Shown: positions 4,813-56,886, counted from the first letter of the whole stretch. The stretch: 63,996 nucleotides of DNA, filler included, from an uncultured Myxococcia bacterium (GCA_964617105.1; 4 parts of 4 records of this genome joined end to end with filler, not necessarily neighbours in it); one strand, 5' to 3'. A program made the numbers and translations. Notes: a model not told the origin generated them from the sequence alone.

Positions 4813-4816
4813 GTGC

Positions 4817-5497
4817 ATGGCCTTTCAAAGAAATATCCAACCAGAAGAGGAAATTATTCTCCGGCGGGCGGCCAGGGAGATCAAATCGGGCATGGTGGTG
4901 AATCTTGGTATTGGTTTACCCACATTTATGCCCAAATATCTGCCCAAAGAGAGTGAGGTAATCTTTCACTCGGAAAATGGTTTTGTAGGAATGGGGCCAC
5001 CCCCTCTTGAAGGTGGGACGCCTGATAACGACATTGTTGATGCCGGAGGCACAGCCTGCACCATTTTAAAAGGCGGGGCTTGTTTCGACAGTATTCTCTC
5101 CTTTGCCATCATTAGGGGCGGACACCTGGATATGGCGATTCTGGGAGCCTTTGAAGTGAGTCTCTACGGAGATTTGGCCAATTGGAAAATACCGGGAAAA
5201 TTGACACCTGGTATGGGAGGCGCAATGGAATTGGCTCAAAAGGCCAATCACTTGCTGGTAGTAAGCCATCATTTTAATAAAATGGGAAAATCCAAGTTGG
5301 TGCAGACCTGTACGCTTCCGGTGACGGCTCCAAATTGCGTTGACACGCTGGTGACCGAACGGGCGGTGTTTCGCAAACGAAATGGAAAATTGGCCCTGGT
5401 AAGCATTCATCCAGCCCATACCAGAGAAACAGCGTTACATGACATGGCAGACCTGGTAGAAGTGGTTGAACCACTTGAAAATTGGCTGCTTTTTTGA
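4817..5497 (+). CDS. 3-oxoacid/acetate CoA-transferase subunit B
   Basis: VNLGIGLPT, catalytic SENG, GDLANW, GMGGAMEL; ATG at 4817 directly after subunit A. Confidence 0.9.
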   Translation: MAFQRNIQPEEEIILRRAAREIKSGMVVNLGIGLPTFMPKYLPKESEVIFHSENGFVGMGPPPLEGGTPDNDIVDAGGTACTILKGGACFDSILSFAIIRGGHLDMAILGAFEVSLYGDLANWKIPGKLTPGMGGAMELAQKANHLLVVSHHFNKMGKSKLVQTCTLPVTAPNCVDTLVTERAVFRKRNGKLALVSIHPAHTRETALHDMADLVEVVEPLENWLLF

Positions 5498-5667
5498 TCT
5501 CTATAATTGATTCGGTTTTGAGGTGGATATTTTAACGAAAAAATAACGGAGGTTATGATGAAGGGCAGACCTATCTTGTAGAGATACTTAACGATTGACA
5601 TCAAGTCAACCCGGAATTAACCCTGTAAAATGCGGACACGGTCCAAAGCAAATCTATTTCGGTGCTG

Positions 5668-5961
5668 TTATCCCTCAAAATAGACCGGATCGCTCAACTC
5701 TTTGAAAGAAAATTTGTGGAATACATGGTAACCATTGTAATCCAACACCCTCAGATCATCGGTCTGTTTCAGGTCGCCCAATACCACATTGTACTGAAGC
5801 CCATATTCCTGTTTGACCTTTGCCAGGTCTACTTCACAGGCAATATATTTTTTGATCCCCTTGGCTGCCAGTTTGTCCACCAGATCCGGAGCAGTAAGGG
5901 AATCAAAAGTGGTCAGTAGTAAAATCGGTCCGGTACCAGTAAAAAATATCCCTGCTTTCAT
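5668..5961 (-). CDS. Conserved hypothetical cytosolic protein (97 aa)
   Basis: AAGGAG RBS; protein-like sequence (FTGTGPILLLT...GIKKYIACEV...DLRVLDYNG). Confidence 0.7.
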   Translation of the reverse strand: MKAGIFFTGTGPILLLTTFDSLTAPDLVDKLAAKGIKKYIACEVDLAKVKQEYGLQYNVVLGDLKQTDDLRVLDYNGYHVFHKFSFKELSDPVYFEG

Positions 5962-6172
5962 AACATCACTCCTTTTTTAGGCCTATATATTGCACTAGTA
6001 ATAATGCTATTCAATTTATACTAATTATATCGCAAATTGCCAAAAAAGTAAACCGCCCTTGACCAAAATTGAACAAATTTGACTATTTTTACTTGACCAG
6101 ATCGGGGGAGTAGTCATAAACTCTCTTAGCGAGATTTGTCTATAACCTATGATCTGAACCTTGTTAGGGGAA

Positions 6173-8402
6173 ATGATGTCATTTTCACGATTAATTTCCA
6201 TTCCAATTTTGAGTTTGCTTCTGTTTATTTTAGGGGCTTTGTTATACCTGCCCGGCCTGGGCAATTATCCGCTTTGGGATCCCTGGGAGCCCCACTATTC
6301 GCAGGTAGCCCTGGAGATGGAACAACACCATACCTGGCTGATGCCCTGGTATAGAAACAGCAATGTATGGTGGTCCAAACCAATCTTCACTTTTTGGCTA
6401 ATACGGGGTGGTTTTTCGATTTTTGGCCATAGCGATTTTGCTGCCCGTTTTTTTATCAGCCTGTTTGGCATTGGCGGTTCTATTTTAATGTTTTTGGGGA
6501 TGAACAAACTTTTCCGCTGCCGCTGGACCGCTTTTTTTGCTGCCCTGGTAATGCTCACCTCGCCCATGTATTTTTTAATCTCCTGCCAGGTGATGGTGGA
6601 TATTCCTTTTTTGGTCTTTTATATGAGCGCCATGGGATGCCTGGCGATTTATCTATACTTGCCAGGTTCCAGGCCAGATTCCGGGCCTGAACTTTCGCCC
6701 GAACATCAACCCGGGCAAGAGGCGAACAACCGTTCAGGTAAAATCTATTTATATCTATTCTATATGTTGCTGGGACTGGCTATGCTTGCCAAAGGTCTCT
6801 TGGCCCTGGTGCTGCCCGGCATGGTAGTTCTGGTGCTTATTATAAGCAGCCGGGAGTGGAAACTGTTGTTAAAACTAAAATTGATTCATGGCCTGGTTAT
6901 TTTCCTGGCTATTTCCGCGCCCTGGTTTATCTATATGACGGTTCAGCATGGCTTGCCATTTTTACGGGAGTTTATCATCGAACATCATTTCCAGCGAATG
7001 GCCGGCAGTATCGGCAAACCTACCGGCACTTTTGACTTTTACCTGAAGCAGGTGGGGGTGGGAATGTTTCCCTGGAGTGCGTTTATACCAGCCGCCATGT
7101 TTTTTCTTTTGCCCAGGGAGATATGTTCCCTCAGGAACCAACCCCAGGAGATAGGCAGCCAAACCAGTGAAGATTATCTTAAAACTCCCTATTATTTTAT
7201 TTTGCTTGCCATTTTTCTCCCCTTTTGTTTTTTTCAACTATCCTCCACCAAGTTCAGTCACTATATCTTTCCCATTCTCCCCTTTATTGCAGCGGCGATT
7301 GCTCTTTTTGCCCGAAGCCTGGTGCACCCAGGGACAACACTCCTGAAAAGATATATTATTACCATTTTCATATTAGCTCTATTTGCTATCTTGGCTTTCG
7401 ANNNNNNNNNNNNNNNNTAAAGATAGGCGGATGCCACCAGAGGTAAATCCCTATCTTTATTTTAAAATCATTTTTGGGGCAGGCGGAGTTTCTCTGCTAA
7501 TATTTTTGATATGGCAGCGTTTCAGTAAGGTGCAGTTGTTGGTATTCTCGCTGGTGCCAATTCTCTTTACGGCCCTGGTATTGCAGTACCTTTTTCCCCG
7601 GGTGGCTCCGGTTTTTTCTTTGAAGCCTTTGTATGAGGCCTACAAAAAACTAGAACCCGAGGAGAAGGCCCAGGTAGGCGATTATCAGCGTTGGCTGCGC
7701 CGAAGCGCCACCTTCTATTTTGGCAACCGGCTACGCCACCTGGACAGCCAGGATGATGTAATATCTTTTGTTCAGCGTCCCCACCAAATATATATGTTGG
7801 TGGACAAAATTATGCTGCCCAAATTACGAACCGAGGTTAAAAACCGGTTGAACCAGGTGCTATACGTGGTTTCCGACCAGCATCCACTGACCATGCTGGT
7901 AGCCAACCAACCCTCCAAAGAGGTAAAAGAAAACATTACCCAAAATATTTTCCGGGAAGATCAGCTGCCCGACAATATTCATAGGATTAATGGCCGGGCG
8001 GGAGCGGTATTGGAAAACCAGATCAAAATCTTGGGCTACACTCTGGAATCGGCCCGCATGCAGAGGGGCAAAAAATACCAGGTGACCTTTTATTACCAGG
8101 TATTAAAAAAAGTAGAGAAGGATTACATGGTGTTTGTGCATGGAGATTACAGTATTACCGCTGGGCACCGGATAAACCGGGATCACCTCCCCATGCGGGG
8201 ATTCTATCCCACTTCGGAATGGCAGCCTGGCGAGGTTATTCGCGACCAGTGGACACTGGTGGTGCCGCTAAAATATCCCTTTAAAGGTTTTACCCTCTGG
8301 GTAGGTTTCTTTTTAGGCGACAAGCGGCTAAAATTGGTAAACAACGCCAACTCTGATGGACACCACCGGATAAAAGGACCTTACATCAAGGTAGGGGATT
8401 GA
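6173..8402 (+). CDS. ArnT/PMT-family (GT83/GT39) membrane glycosyltransferase, split in silico by an assembly gap
   Basis: LWDPWEPHY...KPIFTFWL...LAKG...TKFSHYIFP; the downstream ORF continues in another frame after the 16-N gap (7402-7417); C-terminal DYMVFVH...WQPGEVIRD domain. Confidence 0.8.
7402..7417. other. Scaffold gap (16 N) inside the glycosyltransferase gene
   Basis: Run of N. Confidence 0.99.
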
Positions 8403-9377: not shown

Positions 9378-9872
9378 ATGANNNNNNNNNNTAGTATAGG
9401 TGATAAAGCAGTATATCCTGCTCACGGTGTAGCTGAAGTGATGGCCATTGAAGAGAAAGAGATTTCTGGTACTTCACACCACTTTTATGTTTTGAGGATA
9501 TTGGACAGTGAACTAAAAGTTATGGTGCCGGTGATCAATACCGATAATGTTGGATTAAGATCAATAATCTCGGCTCAGGAGGCTCAGGAAGTTATTGATG
9601 TTTTAAAAGACAAATCCGATGTTTCCAGCCGGAATTTAACCTGGAACCGGAGATACAAGGCTTTCATGGAAAAGATCAATTGCGGTTGCGCCATTAAAAT
9701 TGCCGAAGTATTAAGGGACCTCTATGCCCTGCAAAGTACCAAAGGCCTCTCCTTTGGCGAACGTCGTATGTTCGATACCGCCAAAAGCCTGTTAGTAAAA
9801 GAGTTGTCTTTGGCCAAAGAGGTGGATGAGCCTGAAATAGAAGGTGAAATAGAGGAGATATTTACCAATTGA
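9378..9872 (+). CDS. carD: CarD/CdnL family RNA polymerase-binding regulator (5' end hidden by gap 9382-9391)
   Basis: GDKAVYPAHGV, TWNRRY (wedge Trp), AEVLRDL, LSFGERRM; about 164 aa with no HMGA tail, so CdnL type. Confidence 0.93.
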   Translation: MXXXXSIGDKAVYPAHGVAEVMAIEEKEISGTSHHFYVLRILDSELKVMVPVINTDNVGLRSIISAQEAQEVIDVLKDKSDVSSRNLTWNRRYKAFMEKINCGCAIKIAEVLRDLYALQSTKGLSFGERRMFDTAKSLLVKELSLAKEVDEPEIEGEIEEIFTN

Positions 9873-18871: not shown

Positions 18872-18971
18872 NNNNNNNNNNNNNNNNNNNNNNNNNNNNN
18901 NNNNNNNNNNNNNNNTTAATTAATTAANNNNNNNNNNNNNNNNNNNNNNNNNNNNNNNNNNNNNNNNNNNN
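18872..18971. other. Artificial contig linker N44-TTAATTAATTAA-N44
   Basis: Six-frame stop spacer; genes are truncated on both sides. Confidence 0.98.
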
Positions 18972-37832: not shown

Positions 37833-37932
37833 NNNNNNNNNNNNNNNNNNNNNNNNNNNNNNNNNNNNNNNNNNNNTTAATTAATTAANNNNNNNNNNNN
37901 NNNNNNNNNNNNNNNNNNNNNNNNNNNNNNNN
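37833..37932. other. Artificial contig linker N44-TTAATTAATTAA-N44
   Basis: Identical to the linker at 18872. Confidence 0.98.
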
Positions 37933-39372: not shown

Positions 39373-41481
39373 ATGACTGACTTTCTTTACCAGTTTCTGG
39401 TTAAAATCATCGCTTCCTCTGGATTAGACGGAGCCTGTCAGGTATTCTTGCAAGAAAGCAGCCGCTATTTTGGCTGTGAACAGGGTATTTTCACCTTTGC
39501 CAACCCGGCAAAAAAGATAATTGAAATCAAGGCCATTGTCGGGTTGGAACCCAATAACCATTGGACAGAGTCTGATACAGAGTCTTTCTTTGAAAAGCCT
39601 ATAACTAACCTGGTGCTTCAAAAGGACAGGCCTCAATTCCTGGATCACCTTTCTCTCCAGAAACAAACCGAACCGGGAGAAACATTCTACTTTCCTGACA
39701 GTAAATCTCTACTCTCTTATCGGGAGCATCTAGATATAGGTGACGAGATTATTGTTATTTTGGAATCTAAACAGGCCCAAAAACCATCTGCTGATATCGA
39801 CCTGCTCAGGTTGATGGTAAAAAATGTCATCAACCTGCTCAAAAGCCGCAAACGCAGTGAAAAAAGAGCCAAGGAACTTTCCTGGGTTTGGGATGTAAAA
39901 CGGGAAGTATCCGCCTTTGATGAAGATTTGGATATTTCTGAAATGAGCGGACTTTTGGGAAAAATTCTCCGGTTGGCCCTCTCCCGTACGAACACCAAAA
40001 ACGGGGCGATTTTAATGGTGGACGAAGAGACCAGTGATCTACTCATCTACCAGGAGGCCATAAAAGGGAGCGTGATATCAAAAAATGGGATCACCACCCG
40101 CAGATTTTACCGGCGTAAAGACCGGCCATCGGGACTCTGTTACTGGATTTTTGATAATAATAAAGCCTATATGACCCTTGATGCCACTAAAGACCCCAAT
40201 TACGTGCCTCTGTTTAAAGAGATTAAATCATCCCTGGGTGTTCCAATCTCCTTTCAGGACAGATGCATCGGGGTTATAATAGTGGAATCGGTGAGGAGAA
40301 ACGCTTTTGTGGAAGCTGACCGTCACCTGCTTCTGGATTTAGCTCAAAATGTAACCATGTTTGTTCGCCGGGCTCAACTTTACGAGGAGACTAAAAAGAA
40401 GGGGGTGCAACCCATTTTGATCAGGGGGCTCTCTCAGGAGTGGCAAGAGGTGGAGCGGAGGGTAGAAAAATCGGCAGCCACCAACGCTACCGTTATGCTT
40501 AGAGGCGAGAGCGGCACCGGCAAAGAACTGGTGGCTCACTCCACCCATTTTAATAGTCCCAGGAAACACAACCCTTTTGTGGTGGTCAATTGCGCCGCTA
40601 TACCGGAGCAATTACTGGAAAGCACCTTCTTCGGTCACGTCAAGGGCGCCTTTACCGGCGCCACTTACGACCGGATCGGTGAATTTGAAAAAGCGGAGAA
40701 GGGAACCATTTTTTTAGATGAAATCGGTGATCTCTCGCTGCCCTTACAAGTAAAATTGCTCCGGGTACTCCAGACTGGTGAAATAATGAAAATCGGCAGT
40801 AATGAATTATCCCAGGTGGTGGATGTAAGGGTTATTGCTGCAACCAGCAGAAACCTGGAAGATATGATTAAAAAAGGATCTTTCCGAGAAGACCTTTACT
40901 ACCGTCTCCATGTGGTGCCCATATTCCTACCGCCTTTGCGCAGTTACCGCGATTCCATCCCCGGTATGATCAAGTCCTTTATTGAACAAAGCAACCGGGA
41001 ATATGGTAAAAAGATAATCGATATCTCCTCCGACTCCTTAAACGCCTTGATCAACTACGATTTTCCCGGCAATGTTAGGGAGTTGAAAAATATTATCGAG
41101 CAGGCGGTTATCCTGGAAGATAATGAAAAGATTCAAATAAATATCCTACCCCAGCATATCTCTGCCCCTATAAAAGAAGCGCTGAAAAAATCGGGGCTAG
41201 ATACTATAGATAATGACAATTTAGCTTCCAATACTGGGAAGTCAGATATTTTAAACCATATAGATATTTTTCAGGATGATTACAAGTCGCTGCGGCAACA
41301 TTATCTGCAAAATTTTGAACGGCAATATTTGGAACAACTTCTGGCTGAGTATGATGGGAACATGGCCAAAGCAGCAGCCATGGCCGGCATAAACCGGGTC
41401 AACTTATACAAACTGGCTAAAAAACATAACCTGAATCCAGACAATTTTAGGAAGGAACATGGCCAGGAAAATAGCCCGTAA
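39373..41481 (+). CDS. GAF-domain sigma54-dependent transcriptional activator (bEBP, Fis-type HTH)
   Basis: GAF (DATKDPNY...SLGVPI), [37 protein letters not shown]-terminal HTH. Confidence 0.95.
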
Positions 41482-43814: not shown

Positions 43815-46800
43815 ATGTTATTTAATAAAAATCTGACCGCTAATTCCTTAATTTTATTATTAACTCTTACGCTATTTTTCGCTTTTGGCTGCGGTGAAGA
43901 AAGCCCTTCCGGAACCGATTCTGGCACTTGCGAAGCAGATGCCGACTGCGTCAGCGGAAAATTTTGCCAACAGGGTAGTTGTAAGGATAAGCCGGTGGGT
44001 TACTGCAGCAAGCCCTCTGATTGTCCGGCCGGTCAATTATGTGAGAATAGTATTTGTAAATCTCAGACCGGAAAACAATGCAACACCGATGCTGACTGTA
44101 CCGGTGAAGAAAAACCCGGATGCAATCTTATGAGCAGGCGTTGCGAATTGGAGTGCTCCAATGACACCCACTGCCCAAACGGTACCTGCGATCGTTATGC
44201 TCACAAATGTGTGGGCAAACAAAAAGAGTGCACCAAAGATGGAGATTGCTCAACCAAAACAAACAAGGGGTGCAACCTGCTCACCAATAGTTGTGAATGG
44301 CAATGCACAATTGATGCTCACTGTCCCAGTGGTTTATGTGATATCTATTCCCATAAGTGTACTACTGGTATGGAATGCAATAACGATGCCGATTGTGCGG
44401 GCGCTCTTAAAAAGGGATGTAATACGGTCACCAAAAAATGCGAGTGGGGCTGTGCCAGCGATGCTCATTGCCCTAACAGTTCATGTGATTTGACCAAACA
44501 TACCTGCAAGCCCATTGTTAAAGACTGCCAATCAGACCTGGACTGTGCCTCAGAGATCAACAAGGGATGCAATACGGTCACTAAAAGATGTGAATGGTCC
44601 TGCACCCAGGACAGCCAATGTACCAATGGTATCTGTGATTTGAACACCCACATCTGTATAAGTGTTGGCAGTGGTTGTGCTGGATGTAAAAGCGATGAAT
44701 TTTGTTTTGGCAATCAAAAATGTATTAAAAAATTTATGGAATGCCAAAAAGATCTGGATTGCGGTAAAGATCAAAAATGTATCTCTATTGGTGCAAAAAA
44801 TTCCTGCCTTGACATCTGCGATCCAGCCAAAAACGTATCAACCACCGACAATCACAATAACGATTGCTGGGTCGGATACGGAGAATGCACTCCCTTAAGT
44901 AATGACCAAACCACAGGTGTTTGCCAGTTGCCCAGAGAAAATAATCGCAACTTAAACGAGACTTGCAGTCAAAATGATCCAGAAAAAGAGGATTTTCACG
45001 ACTGCCAGTCCACCGATTTGATCTGTGTAGGTATCAGCCAGTATAGCTCTTTGGCCTACTGCTGGAAATCATGCGACCCAACAAAAAATGATAGTTCAGA
45101 CTTAAATCCTGCCTGTAGCAACAACAAAGGAAAATGTATTAAATTGCAGGATGGTGGCGGCGTTTGCGAGCCGGAAAGAGAGAAAAAGCGGCTGGAAGGA
45201 GAAACCTGTTTACAGGGATTCGACAATGTTAAACCAGAATATCATGACTGCCAATCTACTCTTACCTGTCTGGAAGGCAAAAAAATATGCGCCAAACCAA
45301 GAACCAATACCCAAACCCTGGGTGCCAAATGCGAAACCGAAAATGTAGGCCAACCAGACTACAACAGTTGTGCAGCCGGGAATAATTGCTATAAAAACAA
45401 ATGTTTCAAATCATGTAATCCTGCCAGTCCAGCCTGCGGCAATGAGGAGACTTGTATGAAAACCTCTGTTGCCACCCCCAATGATGGAATATGCCACCCC
45501 ATTCAATTACTGGAATGTGAACGAGAAAAAGATGCAAATGACCAAGACGATCCAAGCAAACATAATTGTCCTACCGATTTTTTCTGTTTTAAGTTTAACA
45601 TATATTACCGCTGTGTGAAACCATGTGATCCATCTGCCACGACATCCACTTGCGACCCCAACTACACCTGCCGTAAATTTGACCTTAACGATGCCACCAA
45701 AGGATACTGCATCCCCGACCGCCAGAAACTCAATAAAAAAGGTGATGTTTGCTACTATTCCGATCCCACAAAAACTAACTACCATGGTTGCCAAGCCGGT
45801 CTGGATTGTGATATTGAAAATTTCACATGCACGGATGCTTTTCCAAAAACCCAAACTGCCGGCCAGGAATGTGAAACCAACAACAAAGGATGCCAGGCGG
45901 GGTTGACCTGCCTCTACAACAAAGGCGGAGAACAAAAAGTCTGTGCCACATCCTGCAGCCCCTTTCAAACGGGTCAATGTCAGGCTGGAGAATTATGTAT
46001 CTCCACCCAGGAAAAGAAATACTACTGGGACGGTGGCTGCTTTCAGGAAAGAAAAGAAGAGTTGGCAGAAGGAGCGGAGTGCTATTGTCAGGACACCACT
46101 CAAAGTTGTTACAACGAATGCACCTCCCCTCTAAAATGCTACACCTATATTAGCGACTATAAAGTCTGTGCAAAAGAGTGTGCAAAAGATGAAGACTGCC
46201 CGGATACCAGCCAGTATTGTGAAACCTACTTTGAAACCTGTTTGAAAAAATCAACCAATACTCAACAGGCTGGATACCAATGTTTTCAATCAGACCCTAG
46301 AAAAGATTCGTATAACGACTGCGATGAAACCAAAGCGACTTGTTTAAATCTGGGAGACATGTTTCTTCCCGATTACTGGTGCCTGGGAAAATGTGATCTA
46401 AAAACACCAAATTGTGACCAGGATTATGATTGCCGCCAGGTCGATTCAGAGACCCAATGCACCAAAGACGAAGATTGCACTGAATCAGGATTTTACTGTA
46501 TGAATGGAATCTGCGCCATGGGTGTCTGCCTAAAACTCAGAAAAGAAACCCGCGATATGTTCGAAGAGTGTGGTGCTGGTGATCCCAAAATTCCATCTTA
46601 CCATGGATGCAAAGGCACCGACCTGCTCTGCGTGGGCGGTGGTGCAAAGAATTATTGCCTGACAAAATGCGACACCAATGCGCCCCAATGCAGCCAGGGA
46701 TTTAGTTGTATGCCTCTTTCTGACGGCACTGACGGTATCTGCGCCATGGATTGCACGCAACTTTCAGAATGTACCGCACACGGAACAGAGTGCACTACTA

Positions 46801-46826
46801 TTGGTGATAAAAAGGTCTGTTTATAG
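43815..46826 (+). CDS. Very Cys-rich repeat lipoprotein (1003 aa)
   Basis: Lipobox AFGC; CxxDxDC repeats; second repeat family ...YHDC / YNDC / YHGC...CDP. Confidence 0.85.
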   Translation: MLFNKNLTANSLILLLTLTLFFAFGCGEESPSGTDSGTCEADADCVSGKFCQQGSCKDKPVGYCSKPSDCPAGQLCENSICKSQTGKQCNTDADCTGEEKPGCNLMSRRCELECSNDTHCPNGTCDRYAHKCVGKQKECTKDGDCSTKTNKGCNLLTNSCEWQCTIDAHCPSGLCDIYSHKCTTGMECNNDADCAGALKKGCNTVTKKCEWGCASDAHCPNSSCDLTKHTCKPIVKDCQSDLDCASEINKGCNTVTKRCEWSCTQDSQCTNGICDLNTHICISVGSGCAGCKSDEFCFGNQKCIKKFMECQKDLDCGKDQKCISIGAKNSCLDICDPAKNVSTTDNHNNDCWVGYGECTPLSNDQTTGVCQLPRENNRNLNETCSQNDPEKEDFHDCQSTDLICVGISQYSSLAYCWKSCDPTKNDSSDLNPACSNNKGKCIKLQDGGGVCEPEREKKRLEGETCLQGFDNVKPEYHDCQSTLTCLEGKKICAKPRTNTQTLGAKCETENVGQPDYNSCAAGNNCYKNKCFKSCNPASPACGNEETCMKTSVATPNDGICHPIQLLECEREKDANDQDDPSKHNCPTDFFCFKFNIYYRCVKPCDPSATTSTCDPNYTCRKFDLNDATKGYCIPDRQKLNKKGDVCYYSDPTKTNYHGCQAGLDCDIENFTCTDAFPKTQTAGQECETNNKGCQAGLTCLYNKGGEQKVCATSCSPFQTGQCQAGELCISTQEKKYYWDGGCFQERKEELAEGAECYCQDTTQSCYNECTSPLKCYTYISDYKVCAKECAKDEDCPDTSQYCETYFETCLKKSTNTQQAGYQCFQSDPRKDSYNDCDETKATCLNLGDMFLPDYWCLGKCDLKTPNCDQDYDCRQVDSETQCTKDEDCTESGFYCMNGICAMGVCLKLRKETRDMFEECGAGDPKIPSYHGCKGTDLLCVGGGAKNYCLTKCDTNAPQCSQGFSCMPLSDGTDGICAMDCTQLSECTAHGTECTTIGDKKVCL
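44079..44657 (+). repeat. Four tandem 44-aa, 8-Cys coding repeats
   Basis: CxxDxDC....KxGCN....CEWxCxxDxHCPxGxCD...HxC x4; copies 3 and 4 share aagggatgYaatacggtcacYaaaa. Confidence 0.9.
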
Positions 46827-48499: not shown

Positions 48500-49093
48500 C
48501 TACTCATCAAAAATTGCTCCCTCGAATTCCTCCTGGTCGATATCTATCCCCTTTAAATTGGCACCCATCAAGTTGGCCTCCATAAATTCCGCACCGGTGA
48601 TGTCAGCGCCAGACAAATCACAATTATGCAAGTTGGCGTTTTCAAAATTGGCATCTCTCAAATCAGAATCTTTAAATGAAGCACTCTCCAATTCAGCACA
48701 TTCAAAATCAGCGTTGCTGATTTGGCAATTTTGCATTTGGGCTTTATGCAGGAACGCGAATGCAAATTTTGTGTTTATCAACTTGGAACCTTTAAATACA
48801 GAACCAGATAATATCGCCTCCTTCAAATTAGCATCACTTAAATCGCAATTTTCTATTTTACTGTTTCCCAGGTTGGCACAGATTAAGTTAGAATTGCTAA
48901 GATTGGATCCGGTAAAGTCCACATTAAGAAGGTCTGCGCCAGACAGGTCAACTTTGTTCAAATTGGTGTTTGATAAATCCGCTCCGGCTAATAAAATATC
49001 GATATAAGGATTTTCCTGCCTGAACTTGTTCCATTCTTTGACCGATTTTTTTAACAAGTTGCATTGCTCTTCTAAATAATTTTTTATTGCCAT
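48500..49093 (-). CDS. Pentapeptide repeat protein
   Basis: A(D/N)Lxx repeats (ADLSN TNLNK VDLSG ADLLN...); N-terminal VKEWNKFR. Confidence 0.92.
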   Translation of the reverse strand: MAIKNYLEEQCNLLKKSVKEWNKFRQENPYIDILLAGADLSNTNLNKVDLSGADLLNVDFTGSNLSNSNLICANLGNSKIENCDLSDANLKEAILSGSVFKGSKLINTKFAFAFLHKAQMQNCQISNADFECAELESASFKDSDLRDANFENANLHNCDLSGADITGAEFMEANLMGANLKGIDIDQEEFEGAIFDE

Positions 49094-49168
49094 TTTTTAT
49101 CCTTATACATTTAGGTAATTAAGGCCAATATTATTTATTTTATTTAATGTAATGGTAAATGTCAACAA

Positions 49169-49191
49169 TGTTTGGACAATATGTCCAAACA
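49169..49191. promoter_or_regulatory. Perfect palindrome, candidate enhancer (UAS) for a sigma54 activator
   Basis: TGTTTGGACA-ata-TGTCCAAACA, about 140-160 bp upstream of the -24 element. Confidence 0.6.
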
Positions 49192-49326
49192 CACCTGGCA
49201 AGGCGGCGGGAAACTGTTGGTTATTGAGGGAAACAGTTTGCTGTCCAGGGTTTACAGAAAATATTATACCTAATCTTTTCCGTAAGTTACGCTATAATCG
49301 AAAAAACTCTGGTCTCTCTCTTATCA

Positions 49327-49343
49327 CTGGCACCAAAAATGCA
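49327..49343 (+). promoter_or_regulatory. Sigma54 (-24/-12) promoter
   Basis: CTGGCACCAAAAATGCA: GG at 49329-30 and GC at 49341-42 with the canonical 10-nt spacing, about 60 bp before ATG 49405. Confidence 0.7.
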
Positions 49344-49404
49344 AATTGACAATGGACATTCACAACAAACATGAACTGACACTTTAATTGTATAGGAGTA
49401 TGAG

Positions 49405-49758
49405 ATGAAAGAGATCACCCTTTATACCTTGATTGAATCACTGGTTACCGAGGTCTATTCTGCCTGCGAAACTTTTGTCAATCGAGACCAGGATAATTTG
49501 CATAATAAAATCAATAAGGCAGCAATTCTTACCACCGCTTTTTTTATCAAGGGCTGCCGTTCGCCTTCTCCTTTTAAATACATGGCCCATTCTCGACAAT
49601 GGGCGAACCAAGTAATTTACCTATTAACACTGGCCCAAAGAAGAGGCCTGATCTCTAAGGATAAATCAATAGGGCTCAGCCGTCCCTACTTTAATTTGGA
49701 TGAAAATATCAATCTTATTTTGGCGAGGAATACTCAAAGTGTTGTCAAAAGTAATTAG
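49405..49758 (+). CDS. Divergent four-helix-bundle protein (23S rRNA-IVP/bAvd-like)
   Basis: LVTEVY..CETF...L..KINKAA...I.GC...Y...R...YLL.LA.RRGLI resembles the IVP pattern; AGGAG RBS; overlaps the comM start. Confidence 0.6.
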   Translation: MKEITLYTLIESLVTEVYSACETFVNRDQDNLHNKINKAAILTTAFFIKGCRSPSPFKYMAHSRQWANQVIYLLTLAQRRGLISKDKSIGLSRPYFNLDENINLILARNTQSVVKSN

Positions 49759-51280
49759 CAGTACAATTTTAGGAATCGATGCCCACAAAGTGGAAGTTGA
49801 AGTCAATATCTCCAATGGCTTTATCAAATTCGACCTGGTGGGACTGGCAGAGTGCGCTGTTAAAGAGAGCCGAATCCGAGTCGAAGCCGCCCTGAAAAAT
49901 TGCGACTTTAATATGCCTATGAAAAAGATAATTGTCAATTTGGCTCCAGCAGATATTCGTAAATCCGGTACTTCTTTCGATTTACCCATAGCGGTGGGCA
50001 TACTGGCCTCCTCCGGAGTTATCCCTATCTCTAACCTGGCTGATTATTTAATCGCTGGAGAATTGTCCCTGGATGGTAAGGTAAAGCCGGTTCCCGGTGT
50101 GCTGTCAATGGCCATTGCTTCAAAAAAATTGGGTTTAAAAGGTTTGATTGTACCGAAAAAAAATATCGCCGAAGCCTCTCTTGCAAAGGGCGTGGATATT
50201 TTGGGGGTAGATGACCTGAAAGAGACGGTGGATATTTTGATCAACGGAAAATCGGAAAGGTACATGATAAATGAAGTCAAAAATGTTCGGGAAAATAATC
50301 ACATTAGTTTCAACAACCTCGACCTGGCCGATGTTTTTGGTCAGCAACACGCAAAACGGGCTTTAGAAGTAGCAGCGGCCGGTGGCCACAACCTTTTGCT
50401 CATAGGACCACCCGGAACCGGAAAAACCATGCTGGCTCAACGGATATCTTCAATATTTCCTTCTATGTCCTTTGAAGAATCACTTGAGACCACCAAAATA
50501 TATTCTATTGCTGAGCATCTAGGGGAAAAAAAGTCTCTTATCGTTTCCCGCCCATTCAGAGCACCACACCACACAATAAGCAGTGCTGGCATGGTGGGAG
50601 GGGGGAGATTCTCGCCCAAACCGGGCGAGGTTTCCCTGGCCCACAATGGGGTGCTTTTTTTGGATGAACTACCTGAATTTCGGCGAGATGCCCTGGAGGT
50701 ATTGAGGCAACCTTTGGAAGATGGAAGAGTGAATATTACCAGATCCCAGATTACTTTTAACTATCCCGCTTCTTTTACCCTGGTGGCTAGCATGAACCCA
50801 TGCAAATGTGGACATATGGGAGATAAAATTAAAAACTGTACCTGCTCGGTGAGTGCCATAAAACATTATCGTGCCCGTATTTCCGGACCTTTGCTGGACC
50901 GGATAGATATCCAGGTAGAAATTCCTCCTGTTACTTCAAAAGATATTTTTTATGGAGATAGGTCGGGTGAAAGTTCCAACAATATAAAAAAAAGGGTGGA
51001 AAAGACGCGAAAAATACAGTGGCAACGGTTTAAAAAAATTAACGGTCTTTTTTGTAACGCCAATATGAACGCTGCTCACCTGAAAAAATATTGTCAATTG
51101 AACGACCGGGGAACAAAACTGCTGAAAAATGCTGTGGATATAATGGGAATCAGCGCCAGGGCATATTCTCGTATCCTAAAAATGTCTAGGACCCTGGCTG
51201 ACATGGAAGGGCAAAAGATGATTGGAAGTCATCATATTGCCGAAGCCATAAATTATCGCAGTTTGGACCGGGAAAATTAA
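49739..51280 (+). CDS. comM: ComM/YifB AAA+ helicase (Mg-chelatase-like)
   Basis: VKESRIRV, NLAPAD.RKSG..FDLPIA, GELSLDG, GPPGTGKT, RPFRAPHHT, PGEVSLAHNGVLFLDE, MNPCKCG, SGPLLDRID, SARAY; GTG start with GAGG RBS. Confidence 0.95.
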   Translation: MLSKVISSTILGIDAHKVEVEVNISNGFIKFDLVGLAECAVKESRIRVEAALKNCDFNMPMKKIIVNLAPADIRKSGTSFDLPIAVGILASSGVIPISNLADYLIAGELSLDGKVKPVPGVLSMAIASKKLGLKGLIVPKKNIAEASLAKGVDILGVDDLKETVDILINGKSERYMINEVKNVRENNHISFNNLDLADVFGQQHAKRALEVAAAGGHNLLLIGPPGTGKTMLAQRISSIFPSMSFEESLETTKIYSIAEHLGEKKSLIVSRPFRAPHHTISSAGMVGGGRFSPKPGEVSLAHNGVLFLDELPEFRRDALEVLRQPLEDGRVNITRSQITFNYPASFTLVASMNPCKCGHMGDKIKNCTCSVSAIKHYRARISGPLLDRIDIQVEIPPVTSKDIFYGDRSGESSNNIKKRVEKTRKIQWQRFKKINGLFCNANMNAAHLKKYCQLNDRGTKLLKNAVDIMGISARAYSRILKMSRTLADMEGQKMIGSHHIAEAINYRSLDREN

Positions 51281-51305
51281 TCAGGTATAAAAAATAGGAG
51301 GTTTT

Positions 51306-52331
51306 ATGAAAAAAAATATTGCCAGTTTATTAAAAGATGTTTTAGACACCATTGAGAAACAATTTGGAAAGGGCTCTATCATGCTGATGTCCGATGAAAC
51401 TGCCAGATCTAAATTGGTGCCTGCTATCTCCAGCGGCGCTCTGGGATTAGATATGGCTTTGGGCATCGGTGGTTATCCCCGGGGTAGAGTAGTCGAAATC
51501 TATGGTCACGAATCATCCGGCAAAACCACCCTCAGTCTTCATGCTATCGCTGAATTACAAAAATCGGGCGGGGTGGCGGCTTTTATCGATGCTGAACATG
51601 CTTTTGATATCAATTATGCCCACCGCCTGGGCGTGGTTACCGATAACCTGCTAGTTTCACAGCCAGATTGTGGCGAGCAGGCTCTTGATATTGCCGAGAT
51701 ATTGGTACGTTCCGGAGCCATCGATTTGATAGTGGTGGATTCTGTAGCTGCCCTGGTTCCAAGAGCTGAAATAGATGGGGAGATGGGAGACAATCATTTG
51801 GGATTACAGGCCAGACTAATGAGCAGGGCCATGCGCAAACTAACTGCGCTGGCCAACAAAAACCAGACTACTTTAATCTTTATCAACCAACTAAGGATGA
51901 AAATCGGGGTCATGTTTGGCAATCCAGAAGTCACCACCGGCGGCAATGCCTTAAAGTTCTATTCTTCGGTGCGCCTGGAGGCCAAACGACTGGGCGTGCA
52001 GAAACAAGGAGATGTGGTGGTGGGCAATAAAATCAGAGTTAAGGTGGTAAAAAATAAAATGGCGCCTCCTTTCAAACAAGTGGAATTAAACCTGATTTAC
52101 AATCAGGGTATCTGCCGAACTGATGACCTGGTGGAAAGAGCCATTACTTACGAAATATTGAAAAAAAGCGGCAGTTGGTACTCCTATGGCGATACCCAAT
52201 TGGGACAGGGAAAAGAGAATACCATTCGAAACCTGGTAAAAAACAACAATTTGCGGCAAAAAATTGAAGCGCTGATAATAAACAAATGGCAGCAGCAATG
52301 CCGACTGGAACCAGTAACCCAGGCGGCTTAA
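51306..52331 (+). CDS. recA: Recombinase RecA
   Basis: [66 protein letters not shown]. Confidence 0.98.
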
Positions 52332-52396
52332 GTCTTATCCAGGGGTCTCTGGATGGAGATGACTAATTCGTTATATCCAAAATAAGGGAGGTAAAA

Positions 52397-52783
52397 ATGA
52401 AGTCACTAAATAAAGTTCTGTTAATTGGAAACCTTGGTTCAGATCCGGAAATGATTCAAACCAAATCGGGAAAAACCCTGGTAAGCCTGAATTTGGCTAC
52501 TAATCTATCGGTTCCGTCTGGGGAAGATTGGCAAGAGATAACCGATTGGCACCGAGTCAAGGCCTGGGGGAAATTAGCGGTCATTTGCAACAAATATTTG
52601 GTCAAGGGACGTAAAATTTTTGTGGAGGGTCGTTTGTGTCGTCGGGAATGGGAAAAAGAGGATGGCAAAAAGGATTCTATCACTGAAATTATCGCCAATA
52701 ATATTATCTTTTTAAACAAGGGTAATGGCACCGGCAACTATGCTACTGCTACCGCCAGTGCAGTTGGGGATTTACCAATGTAA
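52397..52783 (+). CDS. ssb: Short single-stranded DNA-binding protein
   Basis: LNKVLLIGNLGSDPE, LATN, TDWHRV, KGRKIFVEGRL; tail GDLPM. Confidence 0.93.
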   Translation: MKSLNKVLLIGNLGSDPEMIQTKSGKTLVSLNLATNLSVPSGEDWQEITDWHRVKAWGKLAVICNKYLVKGRKIFVEGRLCRREWEKEDGKKDSITEIIANNIIFLNKGNGTGNYATATASAVGDLPM

Positions 52784-52801
52784 ACTCCTCTTGGCAGAAA
52801 T

Positions 52802-52840
52802 CTGAACATCTTTCCAAAATAAACCGGGATAGGTGTTCAG
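52802..52840. terminator. Hairpin between ssb and the convergent small ORF
   Basis: CTGAACATCT...AGGTGTTCAG. Confidence 0.45.
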
Positions 52841-52854
52841 CCTCTAACCAAAAG

Positions 52855-53118
52855 TCAGTGGATGGAAATATTATCGGTCAGGTATTTTTCCGCCTGAGCC
52901 AAAAGGGTTTCATCCACAGGGATTCCCTTTTGGAGGTTTTCCGCTTGATCCATCAATTGGCTGTGTAGATTTTTAATCCTGAATAACTCTTTTTCTGTTT
53001 CACTGCTCCTTAACTGCTCGTGTTTTTCCAATGCTTTCACATGCCTGTTGTGCGCCCTGAAAAGTAGCATCTTGAAATTAATTTTAACCATGTCGTTCTC
53101 TTCCATCTTCACCTCCAT
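52855..53118 (-). CDS. Hypothetical coiled-coil protein (start may be the second ATG)
   Basis: GGAGG RBS before MEEND; helical, charged sequence. Confidence 0.55.
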   Translation of the reverse strand: MEVKMEENDMVKINFKMLLFRAHNRHVKALEKHEQLRSSETEKELFRIKNLHSQLMDQAENLQKGIPVDETLLAQAEKYLTDNISIH

Positions 53119-53204
53119 TGGGTATCCAAATGTGAGTCTTTATGCTACATTTACACACATGATTTGTCAAAAATTTTTATGTAAAAAAACTAAGAAGGAC
53201 ACTA

Positions 53205-56200
53205 CTAAACAGTCTTGATAAGTCCGAAACGGGCATTGGCCTCTATCCAGGGGAAAATATGACGATCTTTGGGGCTGTAGTACACCGCCTTTTTCTTGTC
53301 TTTTTTAGTGGTGATAAATTCAATAGTGTTCTGTTCAAGGGGAGACCAGTGATGGATATGTTGCGGTCTGGCTGGAATAGCGCATTCACCCAGGGCATCG
53401 GCATCAGCATTGCTCACTAACGCGGGACGGCCATTAGCGTCATCTATTAATACCTGGGTATCATGTTCAGGGCTGTTAGATAGTGCATCCAAGGCAAAAT
53501 GCATAAACTCTAAAAATTCTGGGGTAATATCGGGAGTGGTTATTCCTCTAATAACTGAAGTAGGGGCCCGCAAATGGAACTGCCCATCCCGATATAGAGA
53601 AATCATTCTTTCATCTGAAAGGGAATAGGCGCCACCAGATACTTGAAAAAAAGCCCGGGAATCCAGAATGGAGCGCACCACCCGCAAACCAAAATCGATC
53701 AATCGGGGAGAAAAATCGTGCTGGTATCGTTTTATGATGTGTTCTCCTTCTATCATCGCCTCTTTGATTTTGATTATGCCCGATGAACTGTGTGGAGAAC
53801 CGTTGGCAGCGCTAAATAAAAGGTTACGGCAGATAAAACTGTCCAAAAGCCGCTGTTGGTCCGGCGTACCGCCCTTCATCCGCGTCTCTGCTTCCAGGGC
53901 ATTGGCACAACCCTGGCTGTAACCGATAAATCCCCAGGGAGTATCAATATTTCTAACCGCCTGGATAATCACGCCGGCGTTATACTCCAATGAACGGACT
54001 ATGCCGGTATCAGCCCGAATCAACTCTATTCCTCTTTTCTCTTCCAGTCGTTTGAAACTGTTTTCCAGTTCTCTGCCTCGCGCCCCATCTGTTATCACTC
54101 CCATGCAACTGACAATAGTAAAGTTATACTTTCCTTCAGGCGGTTCAATTAACAACCTTACCAGCGGATCAGATTTAACCTGGTCTTGATCTTCTTTTCG
54201 CCGATAAAGGGTCTGGATACAATTTTCCAATAGATGTTGCTGGTTTTTAAACTCCTTTTTCCCGGTTCTTATCTGCAGCCATTGGCGTACATTATCTACA
54301 TCCTGCCGGTAATTTTCCACTACCGAGAGCATAGTCAAGGCATCTTCATTGCGGTGCCAAAAATCTTTGAACCAGGGACGCTTGAAGGCATGGGGATCAT
54401 ACTTTAAAATAAGAGCGCACTGTCTGAAGGCGTCCTGGTAAGCCTGGGCGGCCTCTTTATGTCCGGATAAAGAGTGCTGGCGAAAATCGATTTTCCTACC
54501 CAATTTGTCAGCCTGGGCAATGGCTGACACAGCTTTCTGCTGCAAAGTATTTACCCGGTTATTATTTTTTCTCCCTTTCAACGTCCTATGTCTGGCTACT
54601 TGAGCAAATTGCTTGCGGGTAAAATAAGAGAAAGCGCCTTTTTCAACAATTCTTTCAGCCACCTGATCCAAAGCCTGTATATATGACTCAAAAGCCCTGG
54701 GGCCATGGGCCATAAACTCTTTTCGAGCAGCAACCGTTATCCCCAAATATTTTTGAAATAGGCCCTGTAAATCAAGCGGATGCTGCAAGTAGTCCTGATC
54801 CTGGTCAAAAAAAGCGAACAAAAAACCGGGAAATGCCCGGGGACTGCTGTTCCATAACTCCACCAGCACATCAATAAAAAAAGGCTTCTCTTGCCTAATC
54901 ATTATTTCCAACAATAATCTGATATTAAGTTGAGTCTGCCGATCCTGCCGCCCAAAAGAGAGCGATGCCTTTAACAGGGTAGCCACCTCTTCTGAGCCCA
55001 GGAGGATAGTATTATCTGGCCGGGTTTCCTTTTTTATTCTATCAGAGGTGCTGTTGCCTGCCATCTGTTTGCAAAAATCGGAACCCACTGCTTCGTGAAG
55101 AATACCGGCAATCCAAATCGACTGAGGGGCAAATTCAACTCCACCGTAACTTTCGTTGATCCTGGCTACCTGCTCCTTAATAGTCAACACCCTATACAAA
55201 AAAGAGAATCTCTTTTTACTCCAACGCCGTTTATAAGGACCGGATATAATATAGCGCAATTGCTCCAGGGTCAGAAAAACAGACTGTTTGATAATCTTTT
55301 CCGACACCTCTTCCGATATTTTTTGCTTGATCACCTGGTAAAGTTGGTTGGCTGATATTAGTCTCCTTACCTCCCTGGGCGCATTTTTTTCTTTGGTGAT
55401 GGGTAAGAGTTGTTGCTGGTTAGCCTTTTTTATTGGTTTGGGTATTAAAAGATTATGCAGCCAGAAAACCATTGGTTCAAGATGATTCTCGACATCCAGG
55501 TCATGTAACTCTTCATCAAAAAGCGAAAGTATCTCCTGGGGATTAAATACTTGTCCATCAATTACCAGGGTAGTTTTTTCCAGTTGCTCGGAAATACGTT
55601 TATAGTTTTTAAGACCGCCATTAAAAAGCAAAGAAAACATCTTGGCCATTTTTTCCCTGGGGATAAAATCTGCCGGATGCTCGATATTCTCCCTCTTGAG
55701 TAACTTTTCAGTTATCAGAAACATTATTCGAACCGCTCTTAGCACTTCAGACAATTCGCGGTTAAAAAGAGCAAGGGCGGAAATAAGGTGGAACATGGCT
55801 TCATCGGAACGCAATAATTCCAAGGCATGCAGCGGATTTTCCAAAGGATTGATTAAGGCATTGAAATATTTATACCCATATAATCCGGCACTATCCCCGG
55901 AAAAAGAGATCCGGCCCAGATCATTTATCTCCATCAATACATTACCCTGGCGCAAACCCATAGCCAAAATAGATACTTTTTCCTTTCCCCGTCTAAGAAA
56001 GCAAGGCTTCTTCTGTAAATCCCAACAAATTTCGACCTTTAGACGCTCCAATTTGGAGGTGATAATTTTGCCCTCCTTTACTGCAATCTGGAGCAAGGTA
56101 TCGGACGGCAACCAAAATTTAAACTGATCCAATTGGATATCAGCATAGTTTATCTTTATTGCCGATTTACTGCTGGCAATAGAAACATTGGGTTGATTGA

Positions 56201-56786
56201 TGCCGGAAAAACTGACCTGCAAATGGGCAGTATTTTCAAAACTACAGCCCAGTTTTGCTTTCAATTCCCCCTTTTTTATGGAAAACTCGGGGATTGTATC
56301 CAGTTGGTTGGCAAAATGACCATCTATATTTCCGGAAGTAATCCAGTGTATCTTCCAGGTTCCATTGCTGTCCAGGCCCAGGCGCCCTTCAATTTTACTC
56401 TGAACAGAAGCGGTTATCTTTTTTTCCTGGTGGAAATAATGTTCAATAAAATCATCATTTGTGGCAACAACAGCGGAAAACCGCAGTAAATCATCACCAT
56501 GCTCCAACTGTAAAACCCCTTTTTTCCATAGCAAGGAGAGCGAACCTTGTAAATTGATATCGCTGATATGGCCTGGTATTGAAGTTTCAGACAGACAAAG
56601 TGGATTGGAAAGGAGTACCTGTAACAACAGATCATTCCTGGAAAATCGGTGGGGAGAAAAACCAAAAGATATATGGTTCAATTTGGCATAAATCCCCTTT
56701 TGAATGAAACCACCATCAAATTGTCCCTGGGCAATAAATGAGGATAGAGAAGATAAGTGCAGGTGGAGATCGGAAAAATTTACTAC
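53205..56786 (-). CDS. Large (>1190 aa) uncharacterised protein with C-terminal alpha/beta-hydrolase; 5' truncated
   Basis: Frame open to the contig end; GYSQG nucleophile elbow, SAANGS, HDTQV, HHWSPL. Confidence 0.75.
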   Translation of the reverse strand, partial: VVNFSDLHLHLSSLSSFIAQGQFDGGFIQKGIYAKLNHISFGFSPHRFSRNDLLLQVLLSNPLCLSETSIPGHISDINLQGSLSLLWKKGVLQLEHGDDLLRFSAVVATNDDFIEHYFHQEKKITASVQSKIEGRLGLDSNGTWKIHWITSGNIDGHFANQLDTIPEFSIKKGELKAKLGCSFENTAHLQVSFSGINQPNVSIASSKSAIKINYADIQLDQFKFWLPSDTLLQIAVKEGKIITSKLERLKVEICWDLQKKPCFLRRGKEKVSILAMGLRQGNVLMEINDLGRISFSGDSAGLYGYKYFNALINPLENPLHALELLRSDEAMFHLISALALFNRELSEVLRAVRIMFLITEKLLKRENIEHPADFIPREKMAKMFSLLFNGGLKNYKRISEQLEKTTLVIDGQVFNPQEILSLFDEELHDLDVENHLEPMVFWLHNLLIPKPIKKANQQQLLPITKEKNAPREVRRLISANQLYQVIKQKISEEVSEKIIKQSVFLTLEQLRYIISGPYKRRWSKKRFSFLYRVLTIKEQVARINESYGGVEFAPQSIWIAGILHEAVGSDFCKQMAGNSTSDRIKKETRPDNTILLGSEEVATLLKASLSFGRQDRQTQLNIRLLLEIMIRQEKPFFIDVLVELWNSSPRAFPGFLFAFFDQDQDYLQHPLDLQGLFQKYLGITVAARKEFMAHGPRAFESYIQALDQVAERIVEKGAFSYFTRKQFAQVARHRTLKGRKNNNRVNTLQQKAVSAIAQADKLGRKIDFRQHSLSGHKEAAQAYQDAFRQCALILKYDPHAFKRPWFKDFWHRNEDALTMLSVVENYRQDVDNVRQWLQIRTGKKEFKNQQHLLENCIQTLYRRKEDQDQVKSDPLVRLLIEPPEGKYNFTIVSCMGVITDGARGRELENSFKRLEEKRGIELIRADTGIVRSLEYNAGVIIQAVRNIDTPWGFIGYSQGCANALEAETRMKGGTPDQQRLLDSFICRNLLFSAANGSPHSSSGIIKIKEAMIEGEHIIKRYQHDFSPRLIDFGLRVVRSILDSRAFFQVSGGAYSLSDERMISLYRDGQFHLRAPTSVIRGITTPDITPEFLEFMHFALDALSNSPEHDTQVLIDDANGRPALVSNADADALGECAIPARPQHIHHWSPLEQNTIEFITTKKDKKKAVYYSPKDRHIFPWIEANARFGLIKTV

Positions 56787-56886
56787 NNNNNNNNNNNNNN
56801 NNNNNNNNNNNNNNNNNNNNNNNNNNNNNNTTAATTAATTAANNNNNNNNNNNNNNNNNNNNNNNNNNNNNNNNNNNNNNNNNNNN
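56787..56886. other. Artificial contig linker N44-TTAATTAATTAA-N44
   Basis: Identical to the other two linkers. Confidence 0.98.

Follow-up and report, generated by a model that had tools for sequence, protein, structure and literature searches.

Why should a bacterium keep a second recA and a second ssb directly behind comM, downstream of an element that reads like a sigma-54 promoter? The question is raised by four adjacent genes, orf117, comM, recA2 and ssb2, in the genome of an uncultured Myxococcia bacterium (GCA_964617105.1, G000) derived from marine/seawater metagenomes of two studies. The assembly is metagenomic (489 contigs, 4.07 Mb, 96.5% complete, 3.35% estimated contamination), and the genes were found in a stretch of 63,996 nucleotides, here called the window, to which all positions refer unless a contig is named. 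The window consists of contigs C41-C44, sorted by length and joined by N spacers at 18872-18971, 37833-37932 and 56787-56886, and includes three further short N runs (334-343, 7402-7417 and 9382-9391). Genes across a spacer are not genomic neighbors. The operon is located on contig C43 (37933-56786), and physical linkage to it is limited to that span.

We favor, with a probability of roughly 55%, the interpretation that the sigma-54 operon orf117-comM-recA2-ssb2 is a transformation-linked, LexA-independent recombination kit. The first-pass annotation of the locus had similarly suggested an enhancer-activated DNA-integration kit, and this is supported by the duplicated recA and ssb, by sigma-54 promoters at several com genes and by a promoter-comM-recA core that recurs in Myxococcota. 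What the sequences show is the identity of the genes, the number of their copies, the matches to the promoter class and the conservation of these matches; transcription from the sigma-54 site, joint transcription of the four genes, the part played by the palindrome, the inducing signal and the function in transformation are inferred.

Promoter and gene arrangement of the operon

The element TGGCACCAAAAATGCA (TGGCAC-CAAAA-ATGCA), initially recognized as a canonical -24/-12 element, has GG and GC doublets 10 bp apart as in the sigma-54 consensus, reads ATGCA in its -12 part and predicts a transcription start near 49354. TGGCACN6TGCW is matched nowhere else in the window, where 0.18 matches were expected and 15 of 100 shuffles yielded one or more. 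The genome encodes rpoN (440 bits) as well as 12 sigma-54 AAA domains (PF00158) at E <= 1e-45 and one more at 7e-15, and its enhancer-binding proteins bear REC, FHA, PAS or GAF sensor domains.

To place this element among the other candidate promoters of the genome, we used a scoring matrix trained on the 26 matches to the strict pattern TGGCA[CT]-N5-NTGC[AT] (55 in the genome) that lie within the 17% of sequence outside long ORFs. Sites of at least 18 bits numbered 30 in non-coding vs three in coding sequence, one of the latter lying just before the real comEC start. With 19.9 bits the operon promoter ranks 25th and belongs to the about 30 credible sigma-54 promoters of the genome, along with those of radC (rank 6), comEC (rank 18) and a ComEA-like gene (rank 20). 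The other genes behind the scanned sites include flagellar rod proteins and flagellin, as expected of sigma-54, an ECF sigma factor and a GGDEF protein. When the matrix was trained without the four competence loci, comEC scored 22.0, radC 21.7, the ComEA-like gene 20.8 and the operon 17.5 bits, with 31 non-coding vs nine coding sites at 17 bits or more (non-coding sequence again being 17% of the total). Although the weakest of the four, the operon site is within the credible range.

The uptake and recombination genes that share this promoter class were identified by profile matches. ComEC/Rec2 (TIGR00361, 225 bits, cut-off 190) and RadC (NF000642, 209 bits, cut-off 180) exceed their thresholds, and the ComEA-like protein of 123 aa exceeds that of the helix-hairpin-helix family PF12836 (HHH_3, 49 bits, cut-off 27) and falls below that of TIGR00426 (43.3 vs 53.1 bits); by eye, its N-terminal hydrophobic stretch was taken as a signal peptide. 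These three genes and the comM-recA-ssb operon all carry sigma-54 sites of 17.5-22 bits. The genome also encodes dprA (in a dprA-topA-trmFO-type cluster), a weak comF-like gene and ten prepilin-type signal matches. At radC (C31, ~12200) and comEC (C253, ~3204-3238) the start codon follows the predicted sigma-54 start by 4-5 nt, so that the respective mRNAs would be nearly leaderless.

LexA control of the operon appears to be lacking. The lexA gene is present and its own promoter bears GAACATTTGTTC, a box of the GAAC-N4-GTTC type that occurs 24 times in the genome; by this box type, which was deduced from the lexA promoter alone, no site was found on C43 or in the 2.9 kb before recA1, and none with even one mismatch in the operon region (C43 11100-11480). 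The absence of a recognizable LexA box at the operon, claimed in the first-pass annotation, was thereby borne out, and the second recA and the second, long ssb for which it had proposed to look are present elsewhere. On C2, recA1 follows gidA-gidB-parA-parB-bactofilin and matches the RecA model with 552 bits vs 501 for recA2, while the product of ssb1 on C70 (179 aa) has a long linker rich in Q and ends in DDIPM. The operon therefore does not hold the only recA and ssb of the genome; comM is single-copy. Neither recA1 nor ssb1 has a sigma-54 site of at least 15 bits.

Gene calls returned the co-oriented, tightly spaced arrangement described at first sight, with an overlap of 20 bp followed by gaps of 25 and 65 bp (Table 1). 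This spacing applies to a comM start at GTG 49739; the open frame begins at ATG 49700, and we consider the GTG likelier because GAGGA is positioned 9 nt upstream, the family models align from there and relatives are ~510 aa long. A Shine-Dalgarno sequence precedes each of the four genes. No terminator-like site was found on the + strand between them, the three weak + strand matches being located at 48931-48949 (upstream of the promoter), within orf117 and within comM, and an Rfam search of 48900-53300 gave no match at E <= 1. The four genes would form one transcript, presumably started at the sigma-54 site.

Misassembly does not account for the gene order, since independent contigs bridge the junctions without differences. 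Public marine contigs from four runs of two studies (X1, X2, X3 and X4) span the comM-recA junction and those of three runs (X1, X2 and X4) the recA-ssb junction, each with 0 differences. Run X1 is possibly the sample from which the genome itself came, and X1 and X2 appear to belong to a single data set.

Table 1. Positions of the operon genes, the candidate regulatory elements and the divergent neighbor in the window
Feature	Position	Strand	Basis or remark
Palindrome (inverted repeat)	49169..49191	none	candidate enhancer (upstream activating sequence, UAS) of the sigma-54 promoter
Sigma-54 type -24/-12 promoter	49328..49343	+	GG 49329-49330, GC 49341-49342
orf117, orphan 117-aa helical protein	49405..49758	+	weak PF05635 match
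comM (yifB)	49739..51280	+	TIGR00368, PF13541, PF01078, PF13335
recA2, second divergent RecA	51306..52331	+	TIGR02012
ssb2, 128-aa SSB	52397..52783	+	PF00436
Divergent 197-aa pentapeptide-repeat protein (Qnr/MfpA-like fold family)	48500..49093	-	profile matches

Upstream elements and conservation in Myxococcota

Upstream of the promoter, the perfect 10+10 palindrome TGTTTGGACA-ATA-TGTCCAAACA was found as reported, its center 149 bp before the GG doublet and ~174 bp before the predicted start, a typical UAS distance that would suit a role as enhancer site. No second copy exists in the 4.07-Mb assembly, and the other com genes, which the first-pass annotation had proposed to scan for it, lack the exact palindrome; what recurs are its TGTCC/GGACA half-sites. 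The related sequence TGTCCGGACA is present in five copies, about the chance number, and three of these are located 83-158 bp upstream of sigma-54 sites of at least 18 bits, namely those of radC, the ComEA-like gene and an operon here called S33. All three read TGTCCGGACAC and are accompanied by a partial second copy 10-13 bp away. Each arm of the palindrome is a 2-mismatch variant of TGTCCGGACA, and a further TGTCC lies at -82 of the operon promoter on the scale of the upstream pentamer count. Among the 40 top-scoring promoters listed, exactly four (radC, ComEA-like, S33 and the operon) have three TGTCC/GGACA pentamers within 240 bp upstream. The two remaining copies of TGTCCGGACA do not add to this set: the one at C1:1146 was rejected as a regulon site, its neighbors being unrelated envelope proteins, and the one on C91 sits inside a coding start of a gene that, from its conserved N-terminus, is presumably of the yebC type.

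A wider survey was carried out for the gene order and the promoter. The genome is the sole member of its phylum in the GTDB-based comparison set, its housekeeping RecA nonetheless grouping with Myxococcota, and the 40 genomes compared as relatives share only the domain with it. Metagenome scans queried with orf117 and with ComM found no relative. Myxobacteria were more informative, as two recA genes were present in four of five genomes and the second recA followed comM in three of those four. In the best 30 comM loci from 81 Myxococcota genomes, comM is followed after 45-110 bp by a recA of the same orientation in 13 cases and preceded by the strict sigma-54 pattern in nine. Eight of the nine patterns are positioned between -26 and -50, each of them at one of the 13 comM-recA loci, vs a single strict match, at -205, in the 17 loci without recA. 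An extended set raised the count to nine of 15 comM-recA loci with a sigma-54 element, one TGGTAC variant included, and the element is kept at the same place before comM in myxobacteria of 43-75% G+C. Neither an ssb after recA nor orf117 was seen in any of these 15 loci. In contrast to comM of this genome, which is followed by recA and ssb, none of 29 comM loci from 150 genomes of other phyla had the promoter pattern, recA, ssb or orf117.

A survey starting from recA was misleading. Among 80 recA loci from species genomes no comM-recA-ssb order was found, and a separate locus (L015) has a divergent comM; these loci hold housekeeping copies, and the comM-linked ones surfaced when searching from comM. 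In one of the latter (L265, from G152), the alignment of comM before the second recA is broken into three parts that lie in different frames, and this comM may be frameshifted.

The conservation expected of order and promoter therefore extends to the promoter, comM and recA, and not to ssb. Judged from these loci, the promoter-comM-recA core would be an old, vertically kept module of Myxococcota and this lineage. What is lineage-specific is limited to ssb, orf117 and the presence of sigma-54 promoters before comEC and comEA. The idea that a sigma-54 operon of comM, recA, ssb and an IVP-like gene had not been described agrees with our literature search, in which no published description was found, even though its comM-recA core is not unique to this genome.

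Myxobacterial comM promoters are flanked by the same TGTCC/GGACA half-sites, arranged differently from the operon palindrome. In three related genomes GTGTCCGATTTTCGGACAC is located 80 bp before the comM promoter, one copy with a single mismatch. The general form TGTCCG-N5-CGGACA occurs 13-19 times per genome in four related myxobacteria (G157, G178, G186 and G207), compared to 0-1 for the reversed control, and is placed 79-83 bp upstream of the sigma-54 elements at comM and radC. Seven of 16 such sites fetched (L297-L312) have a sigma-54 element 60-91 bp downstream, followed by comM (two), radC (one), a DEAD/Helicase_C helicase (two) and two other genes. The helicase target, present in two genomes, is RecQ-like. 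One further locus (L264, from G154) carries three tandem TGTTCC-N5-GGAACA copies 60-110 bp upstream of the comM promoter, 21 bp or two helical turns apart, which represent a variant half-site at the position of the TGTCC sites in other myxobacteria.

Encoded proteins and readings of the operon

ComM was assigned with 636 bits to TIGR00368 (cut-off 362) and comprises a Lon-like N-domain, an AAA+ Mg-chelatase-type ATPase and a C-terminal domain; its best non-self relatives are 55-57% identical over the full length of ~510 aa. It belongs to the same family, above the curated cut-off and with the three domains, as the ComM proteins reported from Vibrio cholerae and Acinetobacter (PMC6158740; 10.1101/2024.10.21.619469, a preprint on DprA-ComM recruitment).

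RecA2 (TIGR02012, 501 bits, cut-off 325) has kept the Walker A lysine, Walker B and the L1 and L2 loops, and is 61% identical to RecA1 and 69% to its best non-self match among the 120 listed (8000 scored candidates, 5.8 billion proteins). At 151 columns that are near-invariant in 119 relatives, RecA2 departs at 15 and RecA1 at seven; the departures of RecA2 include P to H in Walker A (GHESSGKT) and T to V in loop L2. In the trees it falls, as do the comM-linked RecAs of myxobacteria, outside the well-supported housekeeping clade that holds RecA1. FastTree joined it to long branches, and the quick IQ-TREE tree gave a polytomy beside the comM-linked rows. A single clade of RecA2 with 15 myxobacterial comM-linked RecAs was not rejected (p-AU 0.37) and would be compatible with the alignment.

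SSB2 (PF00436, 105 bits) has 128 aa with one OB fold, a ~20-aa linker and the C-terminal tip GDLPM, and is 43% identical to SSB1 and 57% to its best non-self match. It had been likened to short SsbB-type proteins. It is indeed a short paralogue (128 vs 179 aa), but not a tail-less SsbB, because its tip resembles the DDIPM of SSB1. No close relative of RecA2, SSB2 or ComM was found among the 5.8 billion proteins.

The first gene encodes what is probably a very divergent relative of the 23S-rRNA-IVP / Avd four-helix-bundle proteins, as judged from remote matches and a structure model. The match of orf117 to PF05635 (E 0.0025) covers positions 3-94 of 106 in the profile and reaches 18.4 bits vs a gathering score of 33.8, for which reason we call it IVP-like and not a member. 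Only three non-self matches were obtained among 1.84 billion representatives, and one of these, the remote homologue P0128 (E 2.6e-4), is a true PF05635 member (80.5 bits). The nearest Atlas clusters are IVP/bAvd with a score of 0.89, below the 0.9 mark. A single-sequence AlphaFold2 model shows four helices (pLDDT 73.5), and Foldseek against the PDB gave nothing at E <= 0.001. Of the earlier proposal of an IVP-like four-helix bundle, the fold is thus matched by the model and the family link is weakly based. A complex prediction of orf117 with ComM scored 0.00 in a run without controls, and the only other IVP gene found in the genome was one degenerate fragment.

Taken together, these proteins could form a self-contained set for handling single-stranded DNA. 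SSB2 would coat the incoming strand, the paralogous RecA2 would pair the coated strand with the chromosome, and the hexameric ComM helicase would extend the joint by branch migration, the operon being turned on by an enhancer-binding protein independently of LexA. In the marine lineage, the shared promoter-comM-recA module would have gained ssb2 at its 3' end and orf117 at its 5' end. Integration of imported DNA is favored as the purpose by the sigma-54 promoters at comEC, the ComEA-like gene and radC, and also because the gene set mirrors a known competence regulon and ComM has been described as transformation-specific. The regulon in question is the CRP-S regulon of Haemophilus influenzae, which is reported to hold comE1 (comEA), rec2 (comEC), comM, radC and ssb (PMC1635313, Cameron and Redfield 2006). 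As in this Sxy/CRP-S regulon, the same five functions are found here behind one promoter class. Unlike in H. influenzae, the class here consists of sigma-54 promoters with a candidate enhancer in place of CRP-S sites. It does not extend to dprA, comF or the pilin genes and takes in a dedicated recA paralogue, which shares one operon with comM and ssb.

Other systems share single features with the locus. Gram-positive competence, as exemplified by cinA-recA of Streptococcus pneumoniae and SsbB of Bacillus subtilis, raises the recombinase and a short SSB together with DNA-uptake genes and outside the SOS response; these species use a single recA with an extra promoter, the regulators ComX or ComK, and an SsbB without the C-terminal tip. 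In contrast, SSB2 keeps its tip and control here is by sigma-54. In Ralstonia solanacearum, the link between sigma-54 and competence is said to run through pilus genes, different from the present genome in which the uptake channel and recombination genes have sigma-54 sites and the pilin genes do not. The rpoN1 gene of that species is reported to be required for twitching motility and natural competence (PMC4371752), and only such indirect links emerged from a literature search for sigma-54 promoters at comEA, comEC, comM or recA. Myxococcus xanthus has RecA1 (MXAN_1441) and RecA2 (MXAN_1388), each recA with its own promoter and one of the two lacking a LexA box and expressed at a low level (PMC7029660); the available portions of this report and of PMC12288472 do not mention comM or sigma-54 at recA. 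The two RecAs are ~61-65% identical, as in our genome. Unlike in that account, the paralogue described here is in an operon with comM and ssb. Competence regulons and duplicated recA genes are known already, and it is the sigma-54/enhancer-controlled comM-recA unit for which no published description was found.

We tentatively extend this to a broader proposal, which may well prove wrong: an ancient second RecA system, shared with Myxococcota, would be controlled by sigma-54 together with an enhancer-binding protein recognizing TGTCC/GGACA sites, and in this lineage would have become a full transformation regulon (ComEA-like, ComEC, RadC, ComM, RecA2, SSB2 and the Avd-like helper) with a recombinase apart from the SOS RecA. 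Should the sigma-54-controlled comM-recA unit be real, it would offer a testable reason for the two RecAs of myxobacteria, of which one has no LexA box, and a new way of regulating recombination or transformation, accessible to work in cultured myxobacteria. A cell of this kind may separate the RecA for foreign DNA from the one that triggers SOS. The TGTCCG-N5-CGGACA sites of myxobacteria, or TGTCCGGACAC in this genome, provide a defined motif for finding the responsible enhancer-binding protein.

Several observations speak against the transformation-linked kit. Everything for this organism rests on one metagenome-assembled genome with the contamination given above. At the 17.5 bits to which the operon site, with ATGCA at -12, drops in the leave-out scan, about one in 15 non-coding matches may be chance. 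Concerning the regulatory motif, no TGTCC element was found upstream of comEC, the half-sites of the palindrome are in the opposite order (GGACA-ATA-TGTCC) to the shared element, and 2-mismatch variants of TGTCCGGACA occur 0.36 times per kb, so common that the link between palindrome and TGTCCGGACA is only suggestive. The palindrome also abuts the -35 of a divergent sigma-70-like promoter. Finally, no sigma-54 site of at least 15 bits was seen near dprA, the comF-like gene or the pilin genes; the expectation that the operon's promoter would be found at other com genes accordingly held at comEC and the ComEA-like gene, as well as at radC, and failed at these others.

The last point leads to the alternative that survives best, in which the same sigma-54 operon serves LexA-independent recombinational repair or a stress response and an enhancer-binding protein, responding to damage or starvation, would induce the second RecA, ComM, RadC, SSB and helicases. 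We consider this possible, if doubtful. The myxobacterial version of the regulon speaks for it, since its core is comM-recA, joined by a DEAD/Helicase_C helicase, which would suit repair and transformation alike, and by radC (sigma-54 element in four of 12 loci of myxobacteria with comM-recA pairs), with uptake genes lacking and comEC carrying the element in just one of 13 loci. RecA1 of M. xanthus, which may or may not be the comM-linked copy and has no LexA box and low basal expression, is reported to rise after UV and mitomycin C (PMC7029660, PMC12288472), and comM of Escherichia coli is reported as UV-induced (PMC1635313). Repair alone hardly explains the strong sigma-54 promoters at comEC and the ComEA-like helix-hairpin-helix gene, however, and ComM is described as transformation-specific in Gram-negatives (PMC6158740, PMC11612176).

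An unlikely reading is that the -24/-12 match is unused, the genes being driven by a sigma-70 promoter and the palindrome being an operator of the pentapeptide-repeat gene. An exact TATAAT hexamer at 49293-49298, 50 bp upstream of the predicted sigma-54 start, could serve as the -10 of such a promoter, the operon has the lowest sigma-54 score of the four loci, and the -35 touched by the palindrome belongs to the best sigma-70-like promoter of the region (minus strand, 49165-49137, 11/12 match), which serves the divergent gene. The TATAAT has no acceptable -35, though, the scan listed no + strand sigma-70-like promoter between 49081 and 49404, and the sigma-54 element is conserved before comM across myxobacteria. 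With the palindrome touching the divergent -35, it may act at the pentapeptide-repeat gene, at the operon or at both, and the two divergent transcription units may share it and be co-regulated.

That the second recA and ssb are foreign, through a contaminant contig or a recent phage or plasmid transfer without a host-integrated role, is very improbable: the metagenomic origin of the assembly with its estimated contamination and the lack of close relatives of RecA2 and SSB2 would allow it, but C43 resembles the genome in composition (tetranucleotide correlation 0.985, 80th percentile; 0.953 for the operon itself vs a median of 0.918 for random 3.4-kb pieces), carries the single-copy enolase and the only comM and shows no integrase or other mobile-element sign among its flanking genes, identity to the RecAs of phages and plasmids does not exceed 62% and is no higher than to chromosomal ones, SSB2 and SSB1 share the unusual ...PM ending, and the arrangement is vertical in Myxococcota.

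Contig context and further sites

The flanks of the operon on C43 are ordinary and include, besides the enolase and the pentapeptide-repeat protein, a GAF-type bacterial enhancer-binding protein (bEBP), a dicarboxylate symporter, a Cys-rich lipoprotein and an acyltransferase-hydrolase. The bEBP (39373-41481) was considered as regulator of the operon and set aside, as it sits next to the gene of the symporter and no link to the operon could be drawn. The lipoprotein (43815-46826) consists of 1003 aa of Cys-rich repeats, and a protein of 1158 aa (53205-56681) forms the other flank of the region; both are without a Pfam match. For the pentapeptide-repeat protein, all specific models (Qnr/MfpA-like) remained below their cut-offs. 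Since the gyrase inhibitor SbmC is reported as a member of the Sxy regulon of E. coli (PMC1635313), the juxtaposition of a DNA mimic directed at gyrase and a recombination operon may go beyond coincidence.

The S33 operon (L173, C226 ~2729-6020, minus strand) has a sigma-54 promoter of 18.1 bits with TGTCCGGACAC 158 bp upstream and encodes three unknown proteins of 154, 255 and 602 aa, the last being a lipoprotein with a lamin-tail domain. By the upstream element shared with radC and the ComEA-like gene, it may represent a surface part of the same regulon.

The half-sites are also found as GTGTCC-N4-GGACAC hairpins with similar flanks at C14:8933, C22:212, C34:15024 and C122:1509. According to the long-ORF lists, the copies on C122 and C14 lie just past an ORF end and the one on C34 within the last 50 nt of an ORF. 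Copies with a spacer of 4 are the commonest class, with 12 in the genome, and these hairpins could act as terminators or represent a small family of repeats that uses the half-site of the sigma-54 upstream elements.

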